A DNA stretch of 58,639 nucleotides from Picochlorum sp. SENEW3 (lineage: Eukaryota). Where the stretch lies: the NCBI GenBank assembly GCA_034226945.1, contig CP120459.1:1054001-1112639 (forward strand). Direction: 5' to 3'. Both the position numbers and the translations under genes were made by a program. Positions within the stretch are counted from its first letter, which is position 1, and the number at the start of each line of letters is the position of its first letter. The notes below the pieces were generated by a model. The model did not search any database, was not told the origin of the DNA, and saw only the letters and a program-made list of their open reading frames with translations. Shown in pieces: positions 23,965-49,987 of this stretch.

Positions 23965-25530
23965 CTCTTATAATTGTTGCCAAAAACAGGCCGGAGCCAT
24001 ACGTCAGTGCCTGGGATGACAGCTCCAGGCTCCACAAACCTTTGAGTGAAAAAGGACATGGCGCGATGAAGAACGGGATTCGCGATGCGTTCCAGGTCCA
24101 TTTCTGATTCTTCTAACATATTGCTGTCCACAAAATGAAGTGCTGCTGACGCGGTATCTTGATCAAGGGAGGAGGCAGGAGTCATTGCCAGAGAAGACAC
24201 ATCCTCTGCATACGGGACTTCTTTTAGAATAAGATATCCAGGGTTGTCTGCAACGCCGATACCTATGGCTAATTTAACACTGGCACCAGCCCTGAGAACC
24301 ATGCGTATGAGGGCCACTTGTTCTTCCTGGACCATTGCATGCGCCAACGAGGAGAGGGCACCTGCTGCTTTTGATGAACTCTTGTCAGCACACAAAATCT
24401 TCGACGTCTGCAAATTCACGGCCACTCTTAGATGTCTACCTATTATCAAATCAAATGTGATTGTCAACATACCCCCATGCATGATACGCATGAAATGGCC
24501 TTCTTCGCCATGAACCCAATGATCTGAATACCTCTTTCAGGAGTAATCTTTGACAAATCAACCAGGGGGTCACTCATTGGCACGATGGACCTTGAAAACT
24601 GCACATGGTACACAATAGCAATTAGTGTTGTAATCTCCCCACCTTGCATTGCCTCGCACATACCCTGAATCCCCTGACCCTATCTTCTACCTCTATTGGG
24701 TATTCTTGCCTGATATCATCCTCTCTATAATACCCTGCCACCGCAACCCCACCAGCAGATTGGTATGGCCAAGGTGCAGCAGACTCTTGAACATCTGTCT
24801 CCGTGGCAAGATGACTAGCGTTCCCCAGAGAGGGAAACGGCTCTTTCTTCAACTTGAGAATCACTTTGACTGGTATTTCCAGGCTGTTTCCCAGCTTCAT
24901 CGTGTGACTATATAAAGTATGCGCATCTTTGTTCTCTTTGATCGGGAAACAAGTCCTGAGCTGGTAGAGGGTGTGCACAGGCTTGACTTGAACAGACTTG
25001 CCTAATTCCCAGGCCCAGTGGTCTGATGCGCACCTCGCCTGCTCCTCATCATGCATACAATGAATCAATGTGAACAATATAGATGCGTCTGCTAACTGTT
25101 CTATAGTACTTTTTGCCACACCACCTTCCCCGGACTCAAATGTTGACAAGACAACAATTCTCTGCTTGGCTGCTTTCTTTTTCTGTTCGGTCGTGGTCCT
25201 CAAAACCTCCCCAGCCACACGCACAGCGGCATCCATTGACCCTTTATCACTGCCCATCGTCGGAGGAGGAAGTTGCTGCAACGTCTTCAGCAAATCTACC
25301 CCAACAGTTTCAAGGGACTGAACAACAGTCACGTGCTCGTAGGCGTCCCCATCTGTCCCATCAAACAATGGATTGCTCGTCGTATCGCATCCAAATATAA
25401 CTATTCCAACTTCATGGTTTGGCTTGTGAATCAGCTTCTCGTGCACAAAGGTTTGGAGGGCTGTTTTCGCACTCTCGAAAAAGGGCGAAAACGACGCCCT
25501 GCAGTCGAGAACCACGACCGCCTTCTCCAT
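23958..25530 (-). CDS. KU80: Ku80 (XRCC5)-like NHEJ subunit, divergent and short; about 2 introns
   Basis: vWA start AVVVLDC...HEVGIVIFG...NPL...YEHVTV; core RGFRFSRSIVP...GIQIIGF, ALSSLAHAM, VPYAEDV, IANPVLHR. Confidence 0.75.
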
Positions 25531-25819
25531 TCTCCTGGATTCCTCCTTGCGTTTTGTTCCTTTTTTTCTCTCCCTCTTCCCGTAGGATATCGCGCTCAAC
25601 GCGTGGTTTTTTGTCGTTTGAAAGAAACTTCCTTAAATTGAATCTGAAAGAAGAACCTGAACAACTTTTCAACCGCGCCAACAGGGGGTTCCACGACAAT
25701 TCCAATGCAGCAGAGAATTGAAATGAATCACTTTTTTATGAAATACCGTGAGATAAATCCCTAGAGTGGAAGCGTTACCTTGGGTCAGATTTAAATTGTC
25801 GTTGTTGGTCGCCTTTTTG

Positions 25820-29351: not shown

Positions 29352-30216
29352 ATGGCTGAAGAAAAGCAGAACGTGATCGCCGGCGAGAGGGGTGAAAAGG
29401 AAGCAGAGCAAGCTAAAGTAGAAGAAAAGGTCCGTCATATTTCATGTGGTAACGTGGTATGGTAGCAAGACTCAGCGATCCCTTCTATGCAGACTACGCC
29501 AATCTTTGGCTCGGCCTCCACTTTTGGGACTGGCAGCGGGTTTGGTGGGTTCACAGGGGTGTCCGCGGCAGCAAAGTCAGAAGATAAGAACGAGGAAGCA
29601 GAGGAGGAGGCACCGGAGGAGGAGTGTGCTGCTGAGTTTCAACCAGTTGTGCAGCTCGAGGAAGTGGAGGTGGCAACCGGTGAGGAGGACGAAGACTGTT
29701 TGGTCGACATGTATGTGCATGTTCTCAACCTCTTGTGCAAGATGCTGGTATTTGTAACTGACGGTGATTATATTTTATGGCTGCAGAAAGTGCAAGCTGT
29801 ATCGTTTTGTGAGTGATAGCAATGAGTGGAAGGAGAGGGGCATTGGACAGGCAAAGATTCTGCAGCACAAAGAAAACAAGCGATCTCGCTTTTTGATGCG
29901 ACAGGAGAAGACATTGAAGATCCGAGGAAATCACGTTGTTATGCCAGGGACGAAAGTCCAGTCTCACGTGGGCAACGAGAAGGCCGTGGTGTTCAACTGT
30001 GTCGATTTTGCAGACGAGGAGCAGAAGCCAGAAGTGTTCTGTATCCGCTTTGCAAGCGCAGAGAGGGCGAAAGAGTTCAAGGATGCATATGAGACAGCGG
30101 GAGAGAATAACAAACCTTTGCTGGCTCCAGCGTCCGAGGAAGAGGAGAAGAAGGACAGCGATGCTGACAAGGTTGCTGATGATTTGGCCAAAGCTGACGT
30201 TGGCGACGACAAATAA
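29352..30216 (+). CDS. RANBP1: Ran-binding protein 1 (2 introns, ~29430-29492 and ~29711-29786)
   Basis: FQPVVQLEEVEVATGEEDE, KLYRF...EWKERGIG, LMRQEKTLKIRGNH, FCIRFASAERAKEFK. Confidence 0.93.
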
Positions 30217-30335
30217 GAATGTATGTAACTATAAATTTCAATCCATTAACAACTATCATTCTATTTTTCTTGTCGATTCTCCTTGATGGCGATCTTGTCG
30301 GCTGCCCTGGCAACATGCATGAAGTTCGCGATGGA

Positions 30336-30480
30336 GGCCACCAAGCATCACGGTACAGTAAAATTTTTTAATTTCGTTTGTCGGACGGAATGTTCCAAAC
30401 TTGGAAGTTCCATCGTTCTCTCTGCTGTATCTTGAAGCATAGCGTCTGCAAAAAGCAGCCGACTTACATGCCGAATTCAT
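30336..30480 (-). ncRNA. Putative Fanzor omegaRNA: scaffold from about the stop codon through the TIR, guide from flanking host DNA
   Basis: Expected position between stop codon and element end. Minus-strand pairings GTCGG...CCGAC, CTGC-TTTTT-GCAG and GGAA-C-TTCCAA-GT-TTGGAA-CA-TTCC. Boundaries inferred. Confidence 0.65.
30356..30379 (+). repeat. TIR at the 3' end of the element (Fanzor orientation): CAGTAAAATTTTTTAATTTCGTTT
   Basis: Matches the reverse complement of 32898-32921 with 3 mismatches. Confidence 0.9.
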
Positions 30481-32789
30481 TGCCGTGTTGATGTCCTTTG
30501 CCTTTTCCTCGTCCTCTTGAAAGCCTTGATTCGAGATCCATTGTAACACTTTTCCAAAAACAAGTCTTTGATATTGATACTGGCATTGACATCACGGTCC
30601 CAAACATTTCGAATGCATTCATTGTTGTGACAACGTTTCATCCTGAATTGTTTGTTGTACTGTTCCATTGCCTCATGACAGCAAGAACAGAGTTTGGACG
30701 TATTGAACTCATTAACCAACACAACTGTGGCACATTCCGATACCTTGTTGAACAGTTTTGTGCTCATGATAGGAGCAGTGCCCCTCATTGTGCCGTTATT
30801 ATCACCATCACCATACGCCACGATGACTCTCTTCTGTGCCTCTTTGTTTCTTGTTCCACAGATTCGAGCGACCACATCCTCCATGGCCGACTTTTCCTTG
30901 CAAAATTTCCTCATCTTCTGTTTCTGATACCATTTTTTGTCATCGAAGAAGGCTTGTTGCAGTTGGGGCCACATAGAAACTTGGAATCTGTAACTCTCAA
31001 AAATTTTCTCAAGATCTACTGTCTTGCATGTTGGCACAGACACCCATGCAGGACAGTATTCAGACATCCTTTTCTTCATTTTGGCTGTATACTGTTTCTG
31101 ACTAGATAAGAAGATCCATTCTCCTGACCCCAGAGAATCACTTTTATATCTGTCTTCCACCTCTGTATGACGACCATTTTCTGCATTCCACTTTGCATGG
31201 ATCTTTTGCTTTTCCGAATCATGAAAAACCCACGTGGCCGCTGACTTTTTACCTGGGTCCAAACCGACAATGATACAATCTGTGTGATATATACCACGGT
31301 CATCTTTGCGTATGCCAGCCAACCTTTTGATCCTTTCTGTGATGACTGTCTTGTCTTTGTTTTTAGCCTTTCGTTTCTGTAGAACGTCCTTTTGTGACTT
31401 TAATGTATGCAACAATGGCTTCAGTAGAACATAATGTATGGTGGAAATGTCACCAAGGAGAATACGCAAAGGGTCATATCTGATCTTTTTTGCAATAATG
31501 TTGGTTGCAAACATCCCACAGTAGGTGGCCCACAACTTTGCTTTGACGTAATTCATATCATCCTGCAGATGGATTATCTTGCATTCCAGATCCGACTTCA
31601 CAGTGTCTATAACAGCAGAAACAGAGACGCCATCAGTGCATATAGAGCATCCGAATCTGAGTTTCTTTTGGTCCTTCATGTGCTTTTTTTTCAATACTCG
31701 CTTCATGTTGAATATCGATTTCCAATAATAATACTTATTTGTATAGTCATCCAGTGCTGGACAGTCATCTACTATCTTTCTGATATATGGATATTTCTTT
31801 GCGAGTTGCTCAACCATAGTCTTCACTGCTGTGCTGGAGATATGGATATGCTTTGGTTTCCAGGCCATCTGTGGACACAGACAAAATGTCCATTTCTGTC
31901 TTCCAAGTATACTCTTCTTCCCTTCAAACTCTCCGTTTCTGAACCTCTGTTGCAGTGATTCCACGAATGGCTCCAAGTGACCCAAAATGAAGAAGCAAAT
32001 TCTGGATTTCTCAGAAAGAGTTGTCGTCTTTGGCACCAACGAGCAAATGATATCCAAGGCTCTCTGTGCTTCATCCCATACTGACACATCAGACGCAAAT
32101 TCTGTCAATGATGGTCTACGTTCAACAATATCACTGACTTTCGTCCTCTCCCAGAATGCCTGTGTGATTGCAGAAAATACTTGTCCAAACTTCTTCTTTG
32201 ACAAATTTTTGATTTGGTCAAAGTCCGTGTCGTCTCGAAACAACAAATATCTCAGATATCGTAATGTATACACATTGAGGTTTGTTTCCAAATGCGTGGT
32301 GTGCATAACAGACGACTGCTGGGCCATCTGCTCAATTGTTCTGTCCCTCCAACCAGAGACACAACCCTGAGGCCAATCTCTCTCCAACGCAACCTCATCA
32401 CAATATTCCTTGCACAAGTCGCGCAAGTTGGTATCAACATCCTTTCTCTCCTTCTTTTGTTGCAAATGATTAGCAAGGTGTCTGTAGATTTTGTTGTAGA
32501 GTTCGTAGAGAGATTCATCTTTATCGTCCCTAAATGCCCCAACGTTCCTCAATAACAATAGATGCATGACATGATGCGCATGAATCTGTAGTCTACTCAG
32601 ATAGAATACACATTCTTCAATTTCGCGTTGAACCACTTTGAACTTACAAAAAGGCTGCAAAGTGCACTTGACGACTGTCTTATTGAAAAAACGGTCTTTA
32701 TCCTTCTTTATAGCCACATCCAATCGAGTAAACTTCTTTTTCTTCACCTTTTTCGATGGTGTGGCGGACACCTTTCTCTTTTTTTTCAT
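30477..32789 (-). CDS. Fanzor (Fanzor1-like) RNA-guided RuvC endonuclease, ~770 aa (alternative ATG at 32828)
   Basis: ICTDGVSVS; RuvC-I IIVGLDPG (D 31257-31259); VIVAYGDG with Gly at the canonical Glu position; VLVNEFNTSKLCSCC (E 30708-30710); zinc finger CSCC...CHNNEC; RuvC-III WDRDVNASINI (D 30591-30593); NLS-like KKKRKV and KRTRKRQR. Confidence 0.93.
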   Translation of the reverse strand: MKKKRKVSATPSKKVKKKKFTRLDVAIKKDKDRFFNKTVVKCTLQPFCKFKVVQREIEECVFYLSRLQIHAHHVMHLLLLRNVGAFRDDKDESLYELYNKIYRHLANHLQQKKERKDVDTNLRDLCKEYCDEVALERDWPQGCVSGWRDRTIEQMAQQSSVMHTTHLETNLNVYTLRYLRYLLFRDDTDFDQIKNLSKKKFGQVFSAITQAFWERTKVSDIVERRPSLTEFASDVSVWDEAQRALDIICSLVPKTTTLSEKSRICFFILGHLEPFVESLQQRFRNGEFEGKKSILGRQKWTFCLCPQMAWKPKHIHISSTAVKTMVEQLAKKYPYIRKIVDDCPALDDYTNKYYYWKSIFNMKRVLKKKHMKDQKKLRFGCSICTDGVSVSAVIDTVKSDLECKIIHLQDDMNYVKAKLWATYCGMFATNIIAKKIRYDPLRILLGDISTIHYVLLKPLLHTLKSQKDVLQKRKAKNKDKTVITERIKRLAGIRKDDRGIYHTDCIIVGLDPGKKSAATWVFHDSEKQKIHAKWNAENGRHTEVEDRYKSDSLGSGEWIFLSSQKQYTAKMKKRMSEYCPAWVSVPTCKTVDLEKIFESYRFQVSMWPQLQQAFFDDKKWYQKQKMRKFCKEKSAMEDVVARICGTRNKEAQKRVIVAYGDGDNNGTMRGTAPIMSTKLFNKVSECATVVLVNEFNTSKLCSCCHEAMEQYNKQFRMKRCHNNECIRNVWDRDVNASINIKDLFLEKCYNGSRIKAFKRTRKRQRTSTRQ

Positions 32790-32897
32790 TTTGAAATGAC
32801 ACGGTTGGCGATGGCGGCTCGACTTCATACCAATCCAAGGTTCTAGAAGATTCGGATTGACCAGAGTCAAATGGACTAGATGTTACATTCCTTAATT

Positions 32898-32921
32898 AAA
32901 CGAAATTTAAAATTTTTACGG
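32898..32921 (-). repeat. TIR at the 5' end of the element: CCGTAAAAATTTTAAATTTCGTTT (minus strand)
   Basis: Inverted partner of 30356-30379; preceded on the minus strand by CATA. Confidence 0.9.
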
Positions 32922-33610
32922 TATGGTGATCATGCAAGGATTTGATTCTTCGTCCGTGTAGCTCGCGCGCGTCATTAGAATATTTCTCGACCGTTGATAC
33001 CATTTCTTCAGATACTTGCCAGGATTTGGCGGCGTCTTCAGTGATAGCAACACGGCTCATGAGGCTTGCAAGATGGTCGGCGTGCACCTTGGAAAAGTTT
33101 CGCACAAGGTCAGCATGTGCCTTTTCTGCCGACCCGAGCTCCTCATCTCCATGCTTGGATGTGTGTTCGATGACAGAAATATTCTGATGATGTGTCCTGT
33201 CATTATGTAGCTCCTGTAAGTGTTGGTATGCTTGCAAGATCTTGGTCAGAGACTGTTCAGTGGCATGCAACCTGTCCAATGTCTCTCTCCAAAACTGGGA
33301 AATCCTGCTCTACAAGTCAAGCCATCTCCTTGTAAATTCACAAATTCTCTTCAAGACGCTGTCCATATATTCGAGGAAAGGAAAACGCACCAATTCAAGC
33401 TTTGTGTAACAGCCATCCTCCGTGGCAGTCTCTGTCATGGCTGGTTCCCAAAGATGATTCAGATAACAGGCTTATAGTAATGAGGGGTAATTGATGTGGT
33501 TGATAGTACTACTATTGTTGTGTTATTATTTTACACTCGTATACATGATAATCATGGTCCATCTATGACGAGTTCTGACCGCCTGGTCAACAAGGGTCTC
33601 CGAAACATGT

Positions 33611-41259: not shown

Positions 41260-44200
41260 GCCTCCCCGCCATCCTCGCCGCATTTCGGGATATATGCGGT
41301 CCCTGTGGAGGGGCGGGACGGGGTCCAGCAGGCGATGGCGAGGCTGCAGCTCTGCACAAAGTTTTTCTCCAGTCGCACACGTCCCACAGTCGAGTGCCCT
41401 GCAGCGCCCGTGAGGTCCTGTAGGGTCCTCCTTGGCCTCCTCGCCGCATTTCGAGACATACAGGATACCTATGGAGGGGATGGATGGGGTCTATCACGCG
41501 ATGGCGAGGCTGCAGCTCTGCACAAAGTTTTCAATTTGCACATGTCCCGAGGTGGAGTGGCATCCAGGCGTTGTGAGGTCCTTCTCGACATCCTCGCCGC
41601 ATTTCGAGGCATGTACGATACCTATGGAGGGGATGGATGGGATCTATCACGCGATGGCGAGGCTGCAGCTCTGCGCAAAGTGTTCAATGTGCACATGTCC
41701 CGAGGTGGAGTGGCATCCAGGCGTTGTGAGGTCCTTCTCGACATCCTCGCCGCATTTTGAGGCATGTACGATACCTATGGAGGGGATGGATGGGGTCTAT
41801 CACGCGATGGCGAGGCTGCAGCTCTGCACAAAGTTTTCAATCCGCACATGTCCCGAGGTGTGGTGGCATCCAGGCGTTGTGAGGTCCTTCTTGGCATCCT
41901 CGCCGCATTTCGAGGCATGTACGATACCTATGGAGGGGATGGATGGGGTCTATCACGCGATGGCGAGGCTGCAGCTCTGCACAAAGTTTTCAATCTGCAC
42001 ATGTCCCGAGGTGTGGTGGCATCCAGGCGTTGTGAGGTCCTTCTTGGCATCCTCGCCGCATTTCGAGGCATGTACGATACCTATGGAGGGGATGGATGGG
42101 GTCTATCACGCGATGGCGAGGCTGCAGCTCTGCGCAAAGTGTTCAATTCGCACATGTCTCGAGGTGGAGTGGCATCCAGGCGTTGTGAGGTCCTTCTCGA
42201 CATCCTCGCCGCATTTCGAGACATGTACGGTACCTATGGAGGGGATGGATGGGGTCTATCACGCGATGGCGAGGCTGCACCTCTGCGCAAAGTGTTCAAT
42301 CTGCACATGTCCCGAGGTGGAGTGGCATCCAGGCGTTGTGAGGTCCTTCTCGACATCCTCGCCGCATTTCGAGACATGTACGATACCTATGGAGGGGATG
42401 GATGGGGTCTATCACGCGATGGCGAGGCTGCACCTCTGCGCAAAGTGTTCAATTCGCACATGTCCCGAGGTGGAGTGGCATCCAGGCGTTGTGAGGTCCT
42501 TCTCGACGTCCTCGCCGCATTTTGAGACATTGCCGATACCTATGGAGGGGATGGATGGGGTCTATCACGCGATGGCGAGCCTGCACCTCTGCACAAAGTG
42601 TTCAATTCGCACATGTCCCGAGGTGTGGTGGCATCCAGGCGTTGTGAGGTCCTTCTCGACGTCCTCGCCGCATTTCGAGACATGTACGATACCTATGGAG
42701 GGGATGGATGGGGTCTATCACGCGATGGCGAGCCTGCAGCTCTGCACAAAGTGTTCAATTGCACATGTCCCGAGGTGGAGTGGCATCCAGGCGTTGTGAG
42801 GTCCTTCTCGACATCCTCGCCGCATTTCGAGACATGTACGATACCTATGGAGGGGATGGATGGGGTCTATCACGCGATGGCGAGGCTGCAGCTCTGCACA
42901 AAGTGTTCAATTCGCACATGTCCCGAGGTGGAGTGGCATCCAGGCGTTGTGAGGTCCTTCTCGACATCCTCGCCGCATTTCGAGACATGTACGATACCTA
43001 TGGAGGGGATGGATGGGGTCTATCACGCGATGGCGAGGCTGCAGCTCTGCACAAAGTGTTCAATCTGCACATGTCCCGAGGTGGAGTGGCATCCAGGCGT
43101 TGTGAGGTCCTTCTCGACGTCCTCGCCGCATTTTGAGACATTGCCGATACCTATGGAGGGGATGGATGGGGTCTATCACGCGATGGCGAGGCTGCAGCTC
43201 TGCACAAAGTGTTCAATTTGCACATGTCCCGAGGTGTGGTGGCATCCAGGCGTTGTGAGGTCCTTCTCGACGTCCTCGCCGCATTTCGAGACATGTACGA
43301 TACCTATGGAGGGGATGGATGGGGTCTATCACGCGATGGCGAGCCTGCAGCTCTGCACAAAGTGTTCAATCTGCACATGTCCCGAGGTGGAGTGGCATCC
43401 AGGCGTTGTGAGGTCCTTCTCGACGTCCTCGCCGCATTTCGAGACATGTACGATACCTATGGAGGGGATGGATGGGGTCTATCACGCGATGGCGAGCCTG
43501 CAGCTCTGCACAAAGTGTTCAATCTGCACATGTCCCGAGGTGTGGTGGCATCCAGGCGTTGTGAGGTCCTTCTCGACGTCCTCGCCGCATTTCGAGACAT
43601 GTACGATACCTATGGAGGGGATGGATGGGGTCTATCACGCGATGGCGAGCCTGCACCTCTGCACAAAGTGTTCAATCTGCACATGTCCCGAGGTGTGGTG
43701 GCATCCAGGCGTTGTGAGGTCCTTCTCGACGTCCTCGCCGCATTTCGAGACATGTACGATACCTATGGAGGGGATGGATGGGGTCTATCACGCGATGGCG
43801 AGGCTGCAGCTCTGCACAAAGTGTTCAATCTGCACATGTCCCGAGGTGGAGTGGCATCCAGGCGTTGTGAGGTCCTTCTTGGCATCCTCGCCGCATTTCG
43901 AGACATGTACGATACCTATGGAGGGGATGGATGGGGTCTATCACGCGATGGCGAGGCTGCACCTCTGCGCAAAGTGTTCAATCCGCACATGTCCCGAGGT
44001 GGAGTGGCATCCAGGCGTTGTGAGGTCCTTCTCGACGTCCTCGCCGCATTTCGAGACATGTACGATACCTATGGAGGGGATGGATGGGGTCTATCACGCG
44101 ATGGCGAGCCTGCAGCTCTGCACAAAGTGTTCAATTTGCACATGTCCCGAGGTGGAGTGGCATCCAGGCGTTGTGAGGTCCTTCTCGACGTCCTCGCCGC

Positions 44201-47200
44201 ATTTCGAGGCATGTACGGTACCTATGGAGGGGATGGATGGGGTCTATCACGCGATGGCGAGGCTGCACCTCTGCGCAAAGTGTTCAATCTGCACATGTCC
44301 CGAGGTGGAGTGGCATCCAGGCGTTGTGAGGTCCTTCTCGACATCCTCGCCGCATTTCGAGACATGTACGATACCTATGGAGGGGATGGATGGGGTCTAT
44401 CACGCGATGGCGAGGCTGCAGCTCTGCACAAAGTGTTCAATTCGCACATGTCCCGAGGTGGAGTGGCATCCAGGCGTTGTGAGGTCCTTCTTGGCATCCT
44501 CGCCGCATTTCGAGACATGTACGATACCTATGGAGGGGATGGATGGGGTCTATCACGCGATGGCGAGGCTGCACCTCTGCACAAAGTGTTCAATCTGCAC
44601 ATGTCCCGAGGTGTGGTGGCATCCCGGCGTTGTGAGGTCCTTCTCGACGTCCTCGCCGCATTTCGAGACATGTACGATACCTATGGAGGGGATGGATGGG
44701 GTCTATCACGCGATGGCGAGGCTGCACCTCTGCACAAAGTGTTCAATCTGCACATGTCCCGAGGTGGAGTGGCATCCAGGCGTTGTGAGGTCCTTCTCGA
44801 CATCCTCGCCGCATTTCGAGACATGTACGATACCTATGGAGGGGATGGATGGGGTCTATCACGCGATGGCGAGGCTGCACCTCTGCACAAAGTGTTCAAT
44901 TCGCACATGTCCCAAGGTGGCGTGGCATCCAGGCGTTGTGAGGTCCTTCTCGACATCCTCGCCGCATTTCGAGACATGTACGATACCTATGGAGGGGATG
45001 GATGGGATCTACCACGGGATGGCGAGGCTGCAGTTCTGCACAAAGTGTTCAATTCGCACATGTCCCGAGGTGGAGTGGCATCCAGGCGTTGTGAGGTCCT
45101 TCTTGGCATCCTCGCCGCATTTCGAGACATGTACGATACCTATGGAGGGGATGGATGGGGTCTATCACGCGATGGCGAGGCTGCACCTCTGCGCAAAGTG
45201 TTCAATTCGCACATGTCCCGAGGTGTGGTGGCATCCAGGCGTTGTGAGGTCCTTCTCGACGTCCTCGCCGCATTTCGAGACATTGCCGATACCTATGGAG
45301 GGGATGGATGGGGTCTATCACGCGATGGCGAGGCTGCACCTCTGCACAAAGTGTTCAATTCGCACATGTCCCGAGGTGGAGTGGCATCCGGGCGTTGTGA
45401 GGTCCTTCTCGACATCCTCGCCGCATTTCGAGACATGTACGATACCTATGGAGGGGATGGATGGGGTCTATCACGCGATGGCGAGCCTGCAGCTCTGCAC
45501 AAAGTGTTCAATTCGCACATGTCCCGAGGTGGAGTGGCATCCAGGCGTTGTGAGGTCCTTCTCGACGTCCTCGCCGCATTTCGAGACATGTACGATACCT
45601 ATGGAGGGGATGGATGGGGTCTATCACGCGATGGCGAGGCTGCACCTCTGCACAAAGTGTTCAATTCGCACATGTCCCGAGGTGTGGTGGCATCCCGGCG
45701 TTGTGAGGTCCTTCTCGACGTCCTCGCCGCATTTCGAGACATGTACGATACCTATGGAGGGGATGGATGGGGTCTATCACGCGATGGCGAGGCTGCACCT
45801 CTGCACAAAGTGTTCAATTCGCACATGTCCCGAGGTGGAGTGGCATCCAGGCGTTGTGAGGTCCTTCTCGACATCCTCGCCGCATTTCGAGACATGTACG
45901 ATACCTATGGAGGGGATGGATGGGGTCTATCACGCGATGGCGAGGCTGCACCTCTGCACAAAGTGTTCAATTCGCACATGTCCCGAGGTGGAGTGGCATC
46001 CGGGCGTTGTGAGGTCCTTCTCGACGTCCTCGCCGCATTTCGAGACATGTACGATACCTATGGAGGGGATGGATGGGGTCTATCACGCGATGGCGAGGCT
46101 GCAGCTCTGCGCAAAGTGTTCAATTCGCACATGTCCCGAGGTGTGGTGGCATCCAGGCGTTGTGAGGTCCTTCTCGACGTCCTCGCCGCATTTCGAGACA
46201 TGTACGATACCTATGGAGGGGATGGATGGGGTCTATCACGCGATGGCGAGGCTGCAGCTCTGCACAAAGTGTTCAATTTGCACATGTCCCGAGGTGGCGT
46301 GGCATCCAGGCGTTGTGAGGTCATTCTCGACGTCCTCGCCGCATTTCGAGACATGTACGATACCTATGGAGGGGATGGATGGGGTCTATCACGCGATGGC
46401 GAGCCTGCAGCTCTGCACAAAGTGTTCAATTCGCACATGTCCCGAGGTGTGGTGGCATCCAGGCGTTGTGAGGTCCTTCTCGACGTCCTCGCCGCATTTC
46501 GAGACATGTACGATACCTATGGAGGGGATGGATGGGGTCTATCACGCGATGGCGAGGCTGCAGCTCTGCACAAAGTGTTCAATTCGCACATGTCCCGAGG
46601 TGTGGTGGCATCCAGGCGTTGTGAGGTCCTTCTCGACGTCCTCGCCGCATTTCGAGACATTGCCGATACCTATGGAGGGGATGGATGGGGTCTATCACGC
46701 GATGGCGAGCCTGCACCTCTGCACAAAGTGTTCAATTCGCACATGTCCCGAGGTGTGGTGGCATCCAGGCGTTGTGAGGTCCTTCTCGACGTCCTCGCCG
46801 CATTTCGAGACATGTACGATACCTATGGAGGGGATGGATGGGGTCTATCACGCGATGGCGAGCCTGCAGCTCTGCACAAAGTGTTCAATTTGCACATGTC
46901 CCGAGGTGGAGTGGCATCCAGGCGTTGTGAGGTCCTTCTCGACGTCCTCGCCGCATTTCGAGGCATGTACGGTACCTATGGAGGGGATGGATGGGGTCTA
47001 TCACGCGATGGCGAGGCTGCACCTCTGCACAAAGTGTTCAATTCGCACATGTCCCGAGGTGGAGTGGCATCCAGGCGTTGTGAGGTCCTTCTCGACATCC
47101 TCGCCGCATTTCGAGACATTGCCGATACCTATGGAGGGGATGGATGGGGTCTATCACGCGATGGCGAGGCTGCACCTCTGCACAAAGTGTTCAATTCGCA

Positions 47201-49808
47201 CATGTCCCGAGGTGTGGTGGCATCCAGGCGTTGTGAGGTCCTTCTCGACGTCCTCGCCGCATTTCGAGACATGTACGATACCTATGGAGGGGATGGATGG
47301 GGTCTATCACGCGATGGCGAGGCTGCAGCTCTGCACAAAGTGTTCAATTCGCACATGTCCCGAGGTGTGGTGGCATCCAGGCGTTGTGAGGTCCTTCTCG
47401 ACGTCCTCGCCGCATTTCGAGACATGTACGATACCTATGGAGGGGATGGATGGGGTCTATCACGCGATGGCGAGGCTGCAGCTCTGCACAAAGTGTTCAA
47501 TTTGCACATGTCCCGAGGTGGAGTGGCATCCAGGCGTTGTGAGGTCCTTCTCGACATCCTCGCCGCATTTCGAGACATTGCCGATACCTATGGAGGGGAT
47601 GGATGGGGTCTATCACGCGATGGCGAGGCTGCACCTCTGCGCAAAGTGTTCAATTCGCACATGTCCCGAGGTGGAGTGGCATCCAGGCGTTGTGAGGTCC
47701 TTCTTGGCATCCTCGCCGCATTTCGAGACATGTACGATACCTATGGAGGGGATGGATGGGGTCTATCACGCGATGGCGAGGCTGCACCTCTGCACAAAGT
47801 GTTCAATTCGCACATGTCCCGAGGTGTGGTGGCATCCAGGCGTTGTGAGGTCCTTCTCGACGTCCTCGCCGCATTTCGAGACATGTACGATACCTATGGA
47901 GGGGATGGATGGGGTCTATCACGCGATGGCGAGGCTGCAGCTCTGCACAAAGTGTTCAATCTGCACATGTCCCGAGGTGTGGTGGCATCCAGGCGTTGTG
48001 AGGTCCTTCTCGACATCCTCGCCGCATTTCGAGACATTGCCGATACCTATGGAGGGGATGGATGGGGTCTATCACGCGATGGCGAGCCTGCACCTCTGCA
48101 CAAAGTGTTCAATTTGCACATGTCCCGAGGTGTGGTGGCATCCAGGCGTTGTGAGGTCCTTCTCGACGTCCTCGCCGCATTTCGAGACATGTACGATACC
48201 TATGGAGGGGATGGATGGGGTCTATCACGCGATGGCGAGCCTGCAGCTCTGCACAAAGTGTTCAATTGCACATGTCCCGAGGTGGAGTGGCATCCAGGCG
48301 TTGTGAGGTCATTCTCGACGTCCTCGCCGCATTTCGAGACATGTACGATACCTATGGAGGGGATGGATGGGGTCTATCACGCGATGGCGAGGCTGCACCT
48401 CTGCGCAAAGTGTTCAATCTGCACATGTCCCGAGGTGGAGTGGCATCCAGGCGTTGTGAGGTCCTTCTCGACATCCTCGCCGCATTTCGAGACATGTACG
48501 ATACCTATGGAGGGGATGGATGGGGTCTATCACGCGATGGCGAGGCTGCAGCTCTGCACAAAGTGTTCAATTCGCACATGTCCCGAGGTGGAGTGGCATC
48601 CAGGCGTTGTGAGGTCCTTCTTGGCATCCTCGCCGCATTTCGAGACATGTACGATACCTATGGAGGGGATGGATGGGGTCTATCACGCGATGGCGAGGCT
48701 GCACCTCTGCACAAAGTGTTCAATTCGCACATGTCCCGAGGTGTGGTGGCATCCAGGCGTTGTGAGGTCCTTCTCGACGTCCTCGCCGCATTTCGAGACA
48801 TTGCCGATACCTATGGAGGGGATGGATGGGGTCTATCACGCGATGGCGAGCCTGCAGCTCTGCGCAAAGTGTTCAATTCGCACATGTCTCGAGGTGGAGT
48901 GGCATCCGGGCGTTGTGAGGTCCTTCTCGACATCCTCGCCGCATTTTGAGACATGTACGATACCTATGGAGGGGATGGATGGGGTCTATCACGCGATGGC
49001 GAGCCTGCAGCTCTGCACAAAGTGTTCAATCTGCACATGTCCCGAGGTGGAGTGGCATCCAGGCGTTGTGAGGTCCTTCTCGACGTCCTCGCCGCATTTC
49101 GAGACATGTACGATACCTATGGAGGGGATGGATGGGGTCTATCACGCGATGGCGAGGCTGCAGCTCTGCACAAAGTGTTCAATTCGCACATGTCCCGAGG
49201 TGGAGTGGCATCCAGGCGTTGTGAGGTCCTTCTCGACGTCCTCGCCGCATTTCGAGACATTGCCGATACCTAAGGAGGGGATGGATGGGGTCTATCACGC
49301 GATGGCGAGCCTGCACCTCTGCACAAAGTGTTCAATCCGCACATGTCCCGAGGTGTGGTGGCATCCCGGCGTTGTGAGGTCCTTCTCGACGTCCTCGCCG
49401 CATTTCGAGACATGTACGATACCTATGGAGGGGATGGATGGGGTCTATCACGCGATGGCGAGGCTGCACCTCTGCACAAAGTGTTCAATTCGCACATGTC
49501 TCGAGGTGGCGTGTCATCCAGGCGTTGTGAGGTCCTTCTCGACGTCCTCGCCGCATTTCGAGACATTGCCGATACCTATGGAGGGGATGGATGGGGTCTA
49601 TCACGCGATGGCGAGGCTGCAGCTCTGCACAAAGTGTTCAATTCGCACATGTCCCAAGGTGGCGTGTCATCCAGGCGTTGTGAGGTCCTTCTTGGCATCC
49701 TCGCCGCATTTCGAGACATATACGATACCTATGGAGGGGATGGATGGGATCTACCACGGGATGGCGAGGCTGCAGTTCTGCACAAAGTGTTCAATTCGCA
49801 CATGTCCC
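41260..49808 (+). repeat. Tandem array of 153-bp monomers: 55 regular copies plus a degenerate first unit
   Basis: The anchor GCACATG recurs every 153 bp from 41538 to 49798 (8260 bp = 54x153 minus two 1-bp deletions). Monomers differ only at a small set of recurrent variant sites. Confidence 0.97.
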
Positions 49809-49987
49809 TGAAATGAGATTCTCTTAATCGGCCAAGATGTATTACAATTGGGGTAATCATTAAAACAAGGAGGATGTTTGTGAGACTTTATCCTGGTTGG
49901 TGCTTTGTGCAACTATACGATGCAACATTTTGGATCCTTTATATTGCAACAGGGTTGGGACTTATTGCTCCTCTTGCAAGAGTCCTA

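Follow-up and report, generated by a model that had tools for sequence, protein, structure and literature searches.

A Tc1/mariner-like transposon carrying a Fanzor1 gene in Picochlorum sp. SENEW3, with a predicted omegaRNA scaffold at its right end

Structure and boundaries of the element

We analyzed a 58,639-nt stretch of contig CP120459.1 of the chlorophyte Picochlorum sp. SENEW3 (positions 1,054,001 to 1,112,639; GenBank assembly GCA_034226945.1), which is hereafter called the window and in whose own numbering all positions are given. On its minus strand, at 30356-32921, lies a 2,566-bp Tc1/mariner-like, TA-duplicating, non-autonomous transposon with terminal inverted repeats (TIRs) and a single gene, which encodes a predicted Fanzor1 nuclease. 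The limits of the element were set from its inverted ends, the joint of an empty site and the divergence of other copies. An initial annotation of the sequence had placed an omegaRNA scaffold and a native guide between the end of the Fanzor gene and the adjoining flank.

The inverted ends of the element are 24 nt long. The left TIR, CCGTAAAAATTTTAAATTTCGTTT, lies at 32898-32921, and the right one, which reads AAACGAAATTAAAAAATTTTACTG on the minus strand, at 30356-30379; the reverse complement of the right end is found at 32898-32921, adjoining the TA. A search with a degenerate 22-mer of the TIR gave two matches in the window (30358-30379 and 32898-32919), compared with 0.00 expected from 100 shuffles, and no second copy of the element was present in the 58,639 nt. 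The two copies of the TA target-site duplication (TSD) are located at 32922-32923 (left; placed by sequence and by the empty-site joint) and at 30354-30355 (right). The statement of the initial annotation that the region next to the Fanzor stop codon is followed by a TIR is therefore correct: the repeat (30379-30356) and then the TA (30355-30354) stand where it had placed them, far beyond chance.

Twenty-four public runs were listed for window positions 30000-33200, at least half of the sampled words being present in 17 of them, and the contigs of four of the 24 runs (X11, X12, X13 and X18) were compared with the window. In contigs representing other copies of the element, the match ends at 30353 (one contig of 1,077 nt in X11 and two contigs in X13) or at 30354 (one contig of 2,011 nt in X12), and in all four of them an unrelated, copy-specific flank follows the right end. 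A contig of X18 starts at 30354, and at the left end an X12 contig departs from the window sequence after 32924. The conservation of copies thus halts at the TIR and the TA, as the initial annotation had anticipated, and the empty alleles lack the element together with one TA. Bridging contigs containing the empty site were found in three of the four runs (X11, X12 and X13). In a 12.7-kb contig of X12, position 30349 is joined to 32918, with 2,568 bp skipped (the element plus one TA); six letters at this joint (plus strand ACGGTA) are ambiguous and could belong to either flank.

Two other readings of the ends were considered and rejected. A longer TIR (33 nt, 85%; 30347-30379 and 32898-32930, ending at 30347) was dismissed on the grounds that the sequence ATCACCA-TA-CCGTGAT is already present in the empty allele; the element appears to have a 33-nt repeat because the host target is partly palindromic. 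A six-base TSD, TACCGT, equal to the ambiguity at the X12 joint, was dismissed because relatives have CAGT inside both ends and TA outside. The relative L008 ends TA|CAGTAGTG...CACTACTG|TA, and the metagenome contigs L005 and L008 terminate exactly at ...CTGTA.

The partly palindromic insertion site (30347-30355 and 32922-32930) may reflect a target preference of the mobilising transposase.

The TA duplication and the inverted ends are those of a Tc1/mariner-type element. No transposase domain was detected in the element, which contains the Fanzor open reading frame (ORF) only, or in the 19 other ORFs of at least 250 aa scanned in the window. Since the element encodes no DDE/D transposase, it is at best a non-autonomous member of this type. 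The other long ORFs of the window are ordinary eukaryotic genes.

The Fanzor1 gene

The sole gene of the element, as judged from its sequence and from a structural model, encodes an intact Fanzor1 RNA-guided nuclease. The open frame comprises 797 codons (30477-32870, minus strand), and within it a coding sequence of 770 aa (30477-32789, minus strand; stop codon TGA at 30479-30477) starts from MKKKRK, as in the named Picochlorum gene models. The protein matches the Pfam Cas12f1-like TNB domain (E = 5e-8; score 33.4 bits, cut-off 26.3). Among 17 homologues, one matches 98% of the query at 100% identity, and the others have identities of 44-55%.

In an alignment of 18 sequences, the motifs GLDPG, TDG, NEF(x6)CxxC and WDRDxNA and four zinc-finger cysteines are invariant. 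The invariant positions comprise the RuvC catalytic D-E-D residues, i.e. D538 (GLDPG), E721 and D758/D760 (WDRD), and the T412-D413-G414 triplet of the WED domain. According to PMC10711439, the DPG signature in RuvC-I marks Fanzor proteins and TDG in the WED domain is characteristic of Fanzor1. The RuvC-II glutamate is relocated: in NEFNTSKLCSCC, six residues separate E721 from C728, the first of the finger cysteines C728, C731, C747 and C752 (CxxC...CxxxxC). Such a relocation to a place just upstream of the zinc finger is the criterion for Fanzor1 given in PMC13565253.

When an AlphaFold model of medium confidence (pLDDT 70.5, pTM 0.57) was compared with the PDB using Foldseek, ranks 1-7 were all taken by Fanzor1 proteins (E from 9e-15 to 8e-11, TM by target 0.38-0.61; SpuFz 9e-15, PpFz 1e-11, GtFz 8e-11), while the best Cas12 protein reached 1.8e-3 and Fanzor2 appeared at rank 31 (E = 0.04). 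The identity to the solved Fanzor1 proteins in the structural alignments is 12-14%. A phmmer search of PDB sequences gave no match to the protein, and a profile search against solved structures was weak, its best match being Guillardia theta Fanzor1 (GtFz1; E = 0.009).

The protein belongs to a 90%-identity cluster of 17 members. Those with names are annotated as hypothetical proteins and come from Picochlorum sp. BPE23, Picochlorum sp. SENEW3 and P. renovo, which marks the window as nuclear DNA of a Picochlorum alga. Viral contigs contained distant relatives only (26-46% identity over short segments) and were excluded from the analysis.

The interrupted host gene and the predicted guide

To judge from the flanking sequences, the element interrupts a conserved host gene 31 codons before its end, since the proteins matching the upstream flank continue into the translation of 30259-30354. 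The upstream flank (32924-33279, minus strand) matches two protein clusters, represented by P0033 (95%) and P0034 (84%), which are approx. 84% identical to each other and continue ...HDHH(Y)T-V(A)MLGGLHRELHACCQGSRQ... The C-terminal 32 codons, TVMLGGLHRELHACCQGSRQDRHQGESTRKIE, are located at 30259-30354 (minus strand, stop codon at 30258-30256) and match intact P0033 and P0034. The upstream part of the gene occupies 32922-33279 (minus strand), from which the filled allele reads into the element and ends ...HDHHTVKILNFV*; the same truncated end is carried by P0038 and P0041. The clusters contain 13 sequences, 10 of which are intact, two end ...HDHHTVKILNFV (filled allele) and one (P0037) is frameshifted.

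The public annotation of these genes is problematic. One source gives the homologues P0039 and P0040 the name 'phenylpyruvate tautomerase PptA', although the cluster representatives have no precomputed Pfam domain. In the gene model P0023, the N-terminus of the host gene is fused to Fanzor via a predicted intron.

The native guide had been proposed to run from 30353 downward and to target the element-free allele. The identity of this target is confirmed by the presence of the same sequence after the TA in the empty X12 contig and in the intact host proteins. The predicted guide/target, CCGUGAUGCUUGGUGGCC (30336-30353, minus strand; host codons T-V-M-L-G-G-L), whose length would lie between 14 and 21 nt by precedent, is unique in the window and identical in the X12 empty allele, and its first bases differ from those flanking the other copies. 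Its derivation from DNA just outside the 3′ end, also part of the initial annotation, fits the arrangement described for Fanzor1, in which the 3′ TSD forms part of the scaffold and is directly followed by the guide (PMC10711439; PMC13565253). With the side of the putative target-adjacent motif (TAM) included, the target would read ...CCATA-CCGTGATGCTTGGTGGCC; the left TA copy and the preceding host ..CCA are likely to represent this side, and the 5′ TSD is given as a part of the TAM in PMC13565253.

The right end as a predicted omegaRNA scaffold

The sequence at 30354-30478 (minus strand) most likely encodes the omegaRNA scaffold, and its flank the guide. Between the TGA stop codon and the TA that follows AAACGAAATTAAAAAATTTTACTG there are 121 non-coding bases. 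The predicted scaffold (125 nt) starts with GAAUUC within the stop codon and extends through the TA, and thus a conserved module (30478-30354) overlaps the stop and includes the right inverted repeat. It was delimited from conserved blocks, common folds and pair counts.

Its predicted 5′ domain (30436-30472, minus strand) is formed by a stem, P1, of GGCAU (30472-30468) and AUGCU (30440-30436), which encloses GUAAGU and the hairpin P2, CGGCUGC-UUUUU-GCAGACG (30461-30443, minus strand). A linker, UCAAGA (30430-30435, minus strand), lies within the block AAGAUACAG, which is conserved in the alignment A2. The terminal domain (30354-30429, minus strand) would consist of a closing stem of UACAG (30429-30425) and CUGUA (30358-30354), an inner hairpin (30411-30387) and the right TIR as its 3′ strand; the right TA copy would provide the final two scaffold bases, paired with the UA of UACAG.

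Relatives were obtained from a metagenome scan, which gave 12 loci, seven of them at 44-52% protein identity. The pair counts were made without L008 (99% identical to L007), L009 (whose contig does not extend to the 3′ region), L010 and L011 (which lack P2) and L012-L016 (24% identity). The relatives of 44-52% protein identity retain two non-coding blocks, GAATTCGGnnnGTAAnnCG and a second one given as AAGATACAG or nnnCUnCAAGAUACAG, together with the terminal CUG|UA (alignment A2). The sequence between and behind the blocks is free, but an architecture common to the relatives recurs there.

P1 has the form GGNNN/NNNCU, being GGCAU/AUGCU in the window, GGCCC/GGGCU in L006 and GGUCC/GGACU in L007. 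Pairing is found in 18 of 20 cells when the register is fixed, and in 4-12 when the partner is slid. P2, a hairpin whose length varies, begins with CG directly behind GUAARY. The closing stem, UACAG/terminal CUGUA after the 6-nt linker, is paired in all of the 20 cells; in L007 it is lengthened to 11 bp, two of them G-U, and A-to-G changes that distinguish the internal strand of L007 from the left repeat preserve the RNA pairing and not the DNA identity. The sister loci L010 and L011, which are 98% identical over 3,127 nt, diverge right after AAAGATACA. L010 (3154-3240) has the hairpin UACAG-GAAUUC-CUGUA and L011 (4087-4180) has UACAA-UAUUAUAAAC-UUGUA, i.e. a double change from G-C to A-U; different flanks follow the hairpin in the two loci, P2 is missing and the long inverted repeat is absent. 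The right end is conserved, with compensatory pairs. The common architecture is the minimum-energy fold in both L005 (-52.1 kcal/mol, z = -4.7) and L007 (-47.7 kcal/mol, z = -2.8); these z values, as well as those of L006 and of the window scaffold given below, refer to mononucleotide shuffles.

The predicted structure would agree with several published features of Fanzor1 RNAs. The scaffolds described in PMC10711439 and PMC13565253 include the right inverted repeat and the TSD, and in PMC10711439 the scaffold terminates in a double-stranded stem. According to PMC11423790, a stem-loop designated SL1 is conserved in Fanzor1 omegaRNAs and the remainder is variable; the published SL1 has 7 bp, and only a structure would allow P2 to be equated with it. 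Taken together, the comparison of relatives supports the order P1-P2-linker-terminal domain as a revised model of the predicted scaffold.

In X13, a variant of the element was observed that lacks 68 nt (30430-30497), i.e. the last six codons, the stop codon, P1/P2 and the linker. The joint, 30429 to 30498, has a depth of 129.6, compared with 177.7 for the full form, and the breakpoint falls exactly at A|TACAG. The same variant is recorded as the protein P0020, whose C-terminus is ...RKRQ|YSRENDGTSKFGTFRPTNEIKKFYC: the terminal domain is translated, and the ORF reads through it into the flank.

Representation of the element in RNA libraries

The element is present in RNA libraries. Contigs of X18, an oligo-dT RNA library, correspond to 30354-30570, 30579-30782, 30854-31004, 32599-32779 and 32761-32924; this run covers parts of the element only, and the uncovered parts carry no meaning. 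X11, for which the label RNA is a guess, contains a 1,856-nt contig over 30385-32240 and a contig that extends from 30414 through the right end and 1,015 nt into another flank. Read-through past a right end of the element is therefore possible.

In a further X11 contig, position 30241 is followed by a terminal run of 22 A, resembling the poly(A) site of a convergent plus-strand gene; the 3′ ends of this gene and of the host gene lie within approx. 20 nt of each other.

Alternative interpretations of the right end

Several observations weigh against a functional scaffold at 30354-30478. The covariation was derived from four informative sequences. In the alignment A3, 95.8% of cells were paired, three P1 pairs were changed on both sides, slid controls gave 21-46% and 3 of 500 shuffles reached the score, but MAFFT misplaces the 3′ strand of L005, so that three rows are sound and the count overstates the support. 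Both P1 misses fall in L005 (2 of 5 pairs), the minimum-energy fold of which has a P1 with a one-base bulge, and the pairs at the base of P2 are formed in 10 of 16 cells at the fixed register, L005 being shifted by one. The common architecture lies 0.2 kcal/mol above the minimum in the window (-27.3 vs -27.5 kcal/mol; z = -1.17) and 3.2 kcal/mol above it in L006 (z = +0.65). The 145 nt originally annotated have a folding energy of -37.3 kcal/mol (z = -1.41), which 19 of 200 dinucleotide shuffles equal or surpass. A search of Rfam with E up to 10 gave no family match, the sole match being a chance one to mir-500 (E = 7.7). No conserved bases were found upstream of the TA among four left flanks (CCA, AAA, TGT and CGC), so that no TAM consensus emerges. 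Variant copies without P1/P2 persist at substantial depth, and the compared runs consist of assembled contigs, in which RNA ends and strand are invisible. Finally, block 1 of the window and of L005 contains UGUAA, which we take to be the green-algal polyadenylation signal.

Some of these observations could be explained differently if the right end combined a transposon end with the 3′ untranslated region of the Fanzor mRNA. The conserved blocks would then be DNA or mRNA signals (subterminal sites bound by the transposase, UGUAA for polyadenylation), and no functional omegaRNA would arise from the window copy. We regard this as unlikely. It would account for a window fold no better than that of shuffled sequences, for the survival of copies without P1/P2 and for contig data showing no RNA ends, and UGUAA in the window and L005 would speak for it too if its presumed signal role is accepted, but L006 and L007 have CGUAA at this place. 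In L005-L007 the terminal domain has a 5′ strand similar to the left inverted repeat, as would be expected of a second transposase site; in L007, however, the A-to-G changes keep G-U pairing with the right end, which is an RNA-level and not a DNA-level feature. P1 changes on both sides and yet keeps its pairing and register, the catalytic residues of the nuclease are invariant, and RNA-library contigs run through the whole module to 30354.

The fold put forward in the initial annotation, in which a long-range GUCGG/CCGAC stem surrounds CUGC/GCAG and GGAA...UUCC hairpins, is quite improbable as the functional structure. All of the motifs named there exist on the minus strand: GTCGG (30463-30459) and CCGAC (30384-30380), CTGC (30458-30455) and GCAG (30449-30446), and the nested hairpin GGAA-C-TTCCAA-GT-TTGGAA-CA-TTCC (30411-30387). 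The CTGC/GCAG pairing is retained as a part of P2. The long-range stem competes with the base of P2: its five base pairs are perfect in the window, but it is absent from the minimum-energy structure, and forcing it costs 2.8 kcal/mol (-24.7 vs -27.5). Its 5′ strand, the P2 base, is locally paired in L005 and L007 (minimum-energy folds) and in the window and L006 (model-constrained folds). By eye, 5-bp complements can be found in L006 (CGUCG/CGACG) and L005 (UCGUG/CGCGA), but L007 offers 4 bp only, the register relative to the conserved GUAARY varies by 0-2 nt between lineages, and by our own rough estimate, not a computed value, approx. 2-3 such 5-bp matches arise by chance per 90-nt partner region. 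Covariation across the relatives, which the initial annotation had named as a check along with folding, speaks instead for P1 and the closing stem; the folding check bore out the motifs and not the energy.

Least probable of the three is a scaffold that consists of the 5′ domain only and ends ...UCAAGA(UA), with the 76-nt terminal module (30429-30354) as a nested mini-element and a guide from 30427 (CAGCAGAGAG...). In its favour, TA-CAG and CTG-TA delimit the module as they would an entire element, the breakpoint of the 68-nt deletion is located precisely at A|TACAG, and the similarity of the 98%-identical loci L010 and L011 ends directly behind AAAGATACA. Against it, these two loci still form the UACAG/CUGUA and UACAA/UUGUA hairpins with their compensatory double change, the module occupies the same place in all four lineages, the depth of the X13 unitig (307.3 = 177.7 + 129.6; a rough measure) gives no sign of extra solo modules, the published Fanzor1 scaffolds noted above include the right inverted repeat and the TSD, and the deletions in empty alleles described below lie in the outer flank and not at the inner site.

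Deletions within empty alleles

The empty allele of X12 is identical to the window flank. In X11, 30341-30347 (7 nt) are deleted, corresponding to target positions 7-13 (30353 = 1), and the deletion is flanked by CA/CA microhomology (plus strand). In X13, the 11 letters at 30339-30349 are replaced by seven, so that, on balance, 4 nt are lost and one is substituted inside the range of positions 5-15. Frameshifting deletions within the predicted 18-nt target are thus present in two of the three empty alleles. The two deletions are independent, as neither can be derived from the other, and both shift into the same alternative frame, ASIANFMHVARAADKIAIKENRQEK*. Neither deletion reaches the TA or the 6-10 bases adjoining it.

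The X13 allele also has an independent record as the protein P0037 (...TVML-ASIANFMHVARAADKIVIKENRQEK) of Picochlorum sp. BPE23, and P0023 of the same strain, in which the host gene is fused to Fanzor, represents the filled allele; the BPE23 assembly is described as fully phased diploid (PMC9615354). The ends of X13 contigs fit the presence of filled and empty forms together: the element unitig stops at 32947 (= 32917 + 30) and the flank unitig at 30338. The depth of the bridging contig is 89.7, compared with approx. 155 for the flank.

Excision footprints were rejected as the origin of the deletions on account of the unchanged TA and adjoining bases. An origin as neutral indels of non-coding DNA is made less plausible by the nature of the site, which is coding sequence conserved between the two protein clusters. 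Tentatively, Fanzor may be active in its native diploid host, where it would have cut the empty homologue and end joining would have left resistant alleles; the pattern of the deletions could be that expected of cleavage-resistant alleles opposite a homing, gene-drive-like element. The known Fanzor1 cuts are reported at positions 14-17 (GtFz1) and 16-21 (SpuFz1) in PMC10432273, and the deletions adjoin these positions and do not fall on them. Intact empty alleles are common (10 of the 13 proteins), in genomes that may or may not carry this copy of the element. As an alternative to cleavage, the deletions could represent the decay of a dispensable gene that tolerates truncation, which would be in keeping with the truncation of the host gene by the filled allele too, or slippage at the short repeats TGG-TGG and CA..CA.

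An ORF at 24622-25632 (minus strand) of the window contains a Ku70/Ku80 N-terminal domain (E = 2.8e-12). The genome thus encodes an end-joining factor, which bears on the repair of nuclease cuts with small deletions.

Proposed mechanism and its significance

In the mechanism that we propose, the 5′ part of the scaffold would be formed by the conserved P1 (GGCAU/AUGCU) around the hairpin P2 (CGGCUGC-U5-GCAGACG). The UCAAGA linker and then the variable terminal domain would follow, the closing stem making use of the transposon tip CUG and the duplicated UA. Transcription reading through into the flank would add the guide, from 30353 (CCGUGAUGCUUGG...), which would match the uninterrupted host gene, where ...CCA-TA precedes as the TAM side. 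The nuclease would bind this RNA, and the complex would cleave the allele that lacks the element, be it a site vacated by excision or the homologous chromosome in a diploid; with the filled copy as repair template, the element would be restored or spread.

Fanzor proteins have been characterised biochemically and as editing tools. In the section of a 2026 review dealing with restorative homing (PMC13565253), this process is listed as shown for TnpB and IscB, and Fanzor is not listed there. The locus described here combines an intact Fanzor1, exact ends, a predicted guide and a matching natural empty allele; filled and empty forms occur side by side in X13, and both are annotated in a phased diploid strain. 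With a target in conserved coding sequence and deletions in two of the three empty alleles, the question of homing and resistance is directly testable. If Fanzor did cut in its host, the deletions would be the first in-host evidence of a eukaryotic Fanzor cutting its cognate empty site. The annotation also adds a chlorophyte Fanzor1 and a predicted omegaRNA family with a revised scaffold model.

Elsewhere in the window, a tandem array of a 153-bp unit is located at 41424-49808 (54.8 copies, 95% matches, constant 57% GC). It reads as very long plus-strand open frames, e.g. 43137-49811, and could be a repeat protein or a satellite.

Comparison with known systems

With non-autonomous Tc1/mariner elements, the transposon shares the TA duplication and a precise empty site with a single TA. 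The termini CAGT...ACTG are found in the relatives L006 and L008, and the element of the window has C[C/A]GT. The repeat of L006 and L008, CAGTAGTGGCAAAAAAGATAG, is one that we take to resemble the Tc1 repeat. In contrast to Tc1/mariner elements, the window element lacks a DDE transposase.

The Spu-1 locus of SpuFz1 from Spizellomyces punctatus, as described in PMC10432273, is similar in size (approx. 2-2.6 kb) and likewise has a single Fanzor1 ORF between short inverted repeats, with the variable flank as guide; SpuFz1 is also the best structural match of the window protein. Both systems have an AT-rich 5′ side with TA, the TAM of SpuFz1 being CATA, compared with ..CCA-TA in the window. The two proteins differ in sequence (13-14% identity in the structural alignment) and in size, the window protein being larger (770-797 aa vs approx. 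600 modelled residues), and the predicted scaffold has 125 nt as against 75 nt. 'Ghost' copies were not seen for the window element.

The Fanzor1 of SfAV and its reRNA (PMC10711439) also belong to a cut-and-paste transposon with TIRs and a TSD, in which the TSD is described as the last part of the scaffold. The terminal bases of that RNA are reported to lie in a double-stranded stem and not in a pseudoknot, to which the predicted UACAG/CUGUA stem of the window would correspond. The host differs (an insect virus as opposed to an alga), as does the transposon sequence.

TnpB of IS200/IS605 elements (ISDra2 type) is prokaryotic and, unlike the system of the window, is associated with single-strand 'peel and paste' transposition without a TSD; its scaffold does not extend past the boundary of the element and contains a pseudoknot. 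Both systems have in common a guide RNA derived from the right end (predicted in the case of the window element), with the flanking DNA as guide, and the role proposed for TnpB in PMC13565253, i.e. cutting of the vacated site followed by repair that restores the element, is the one that we suggest for the Fanzor1 of Picochlorum.

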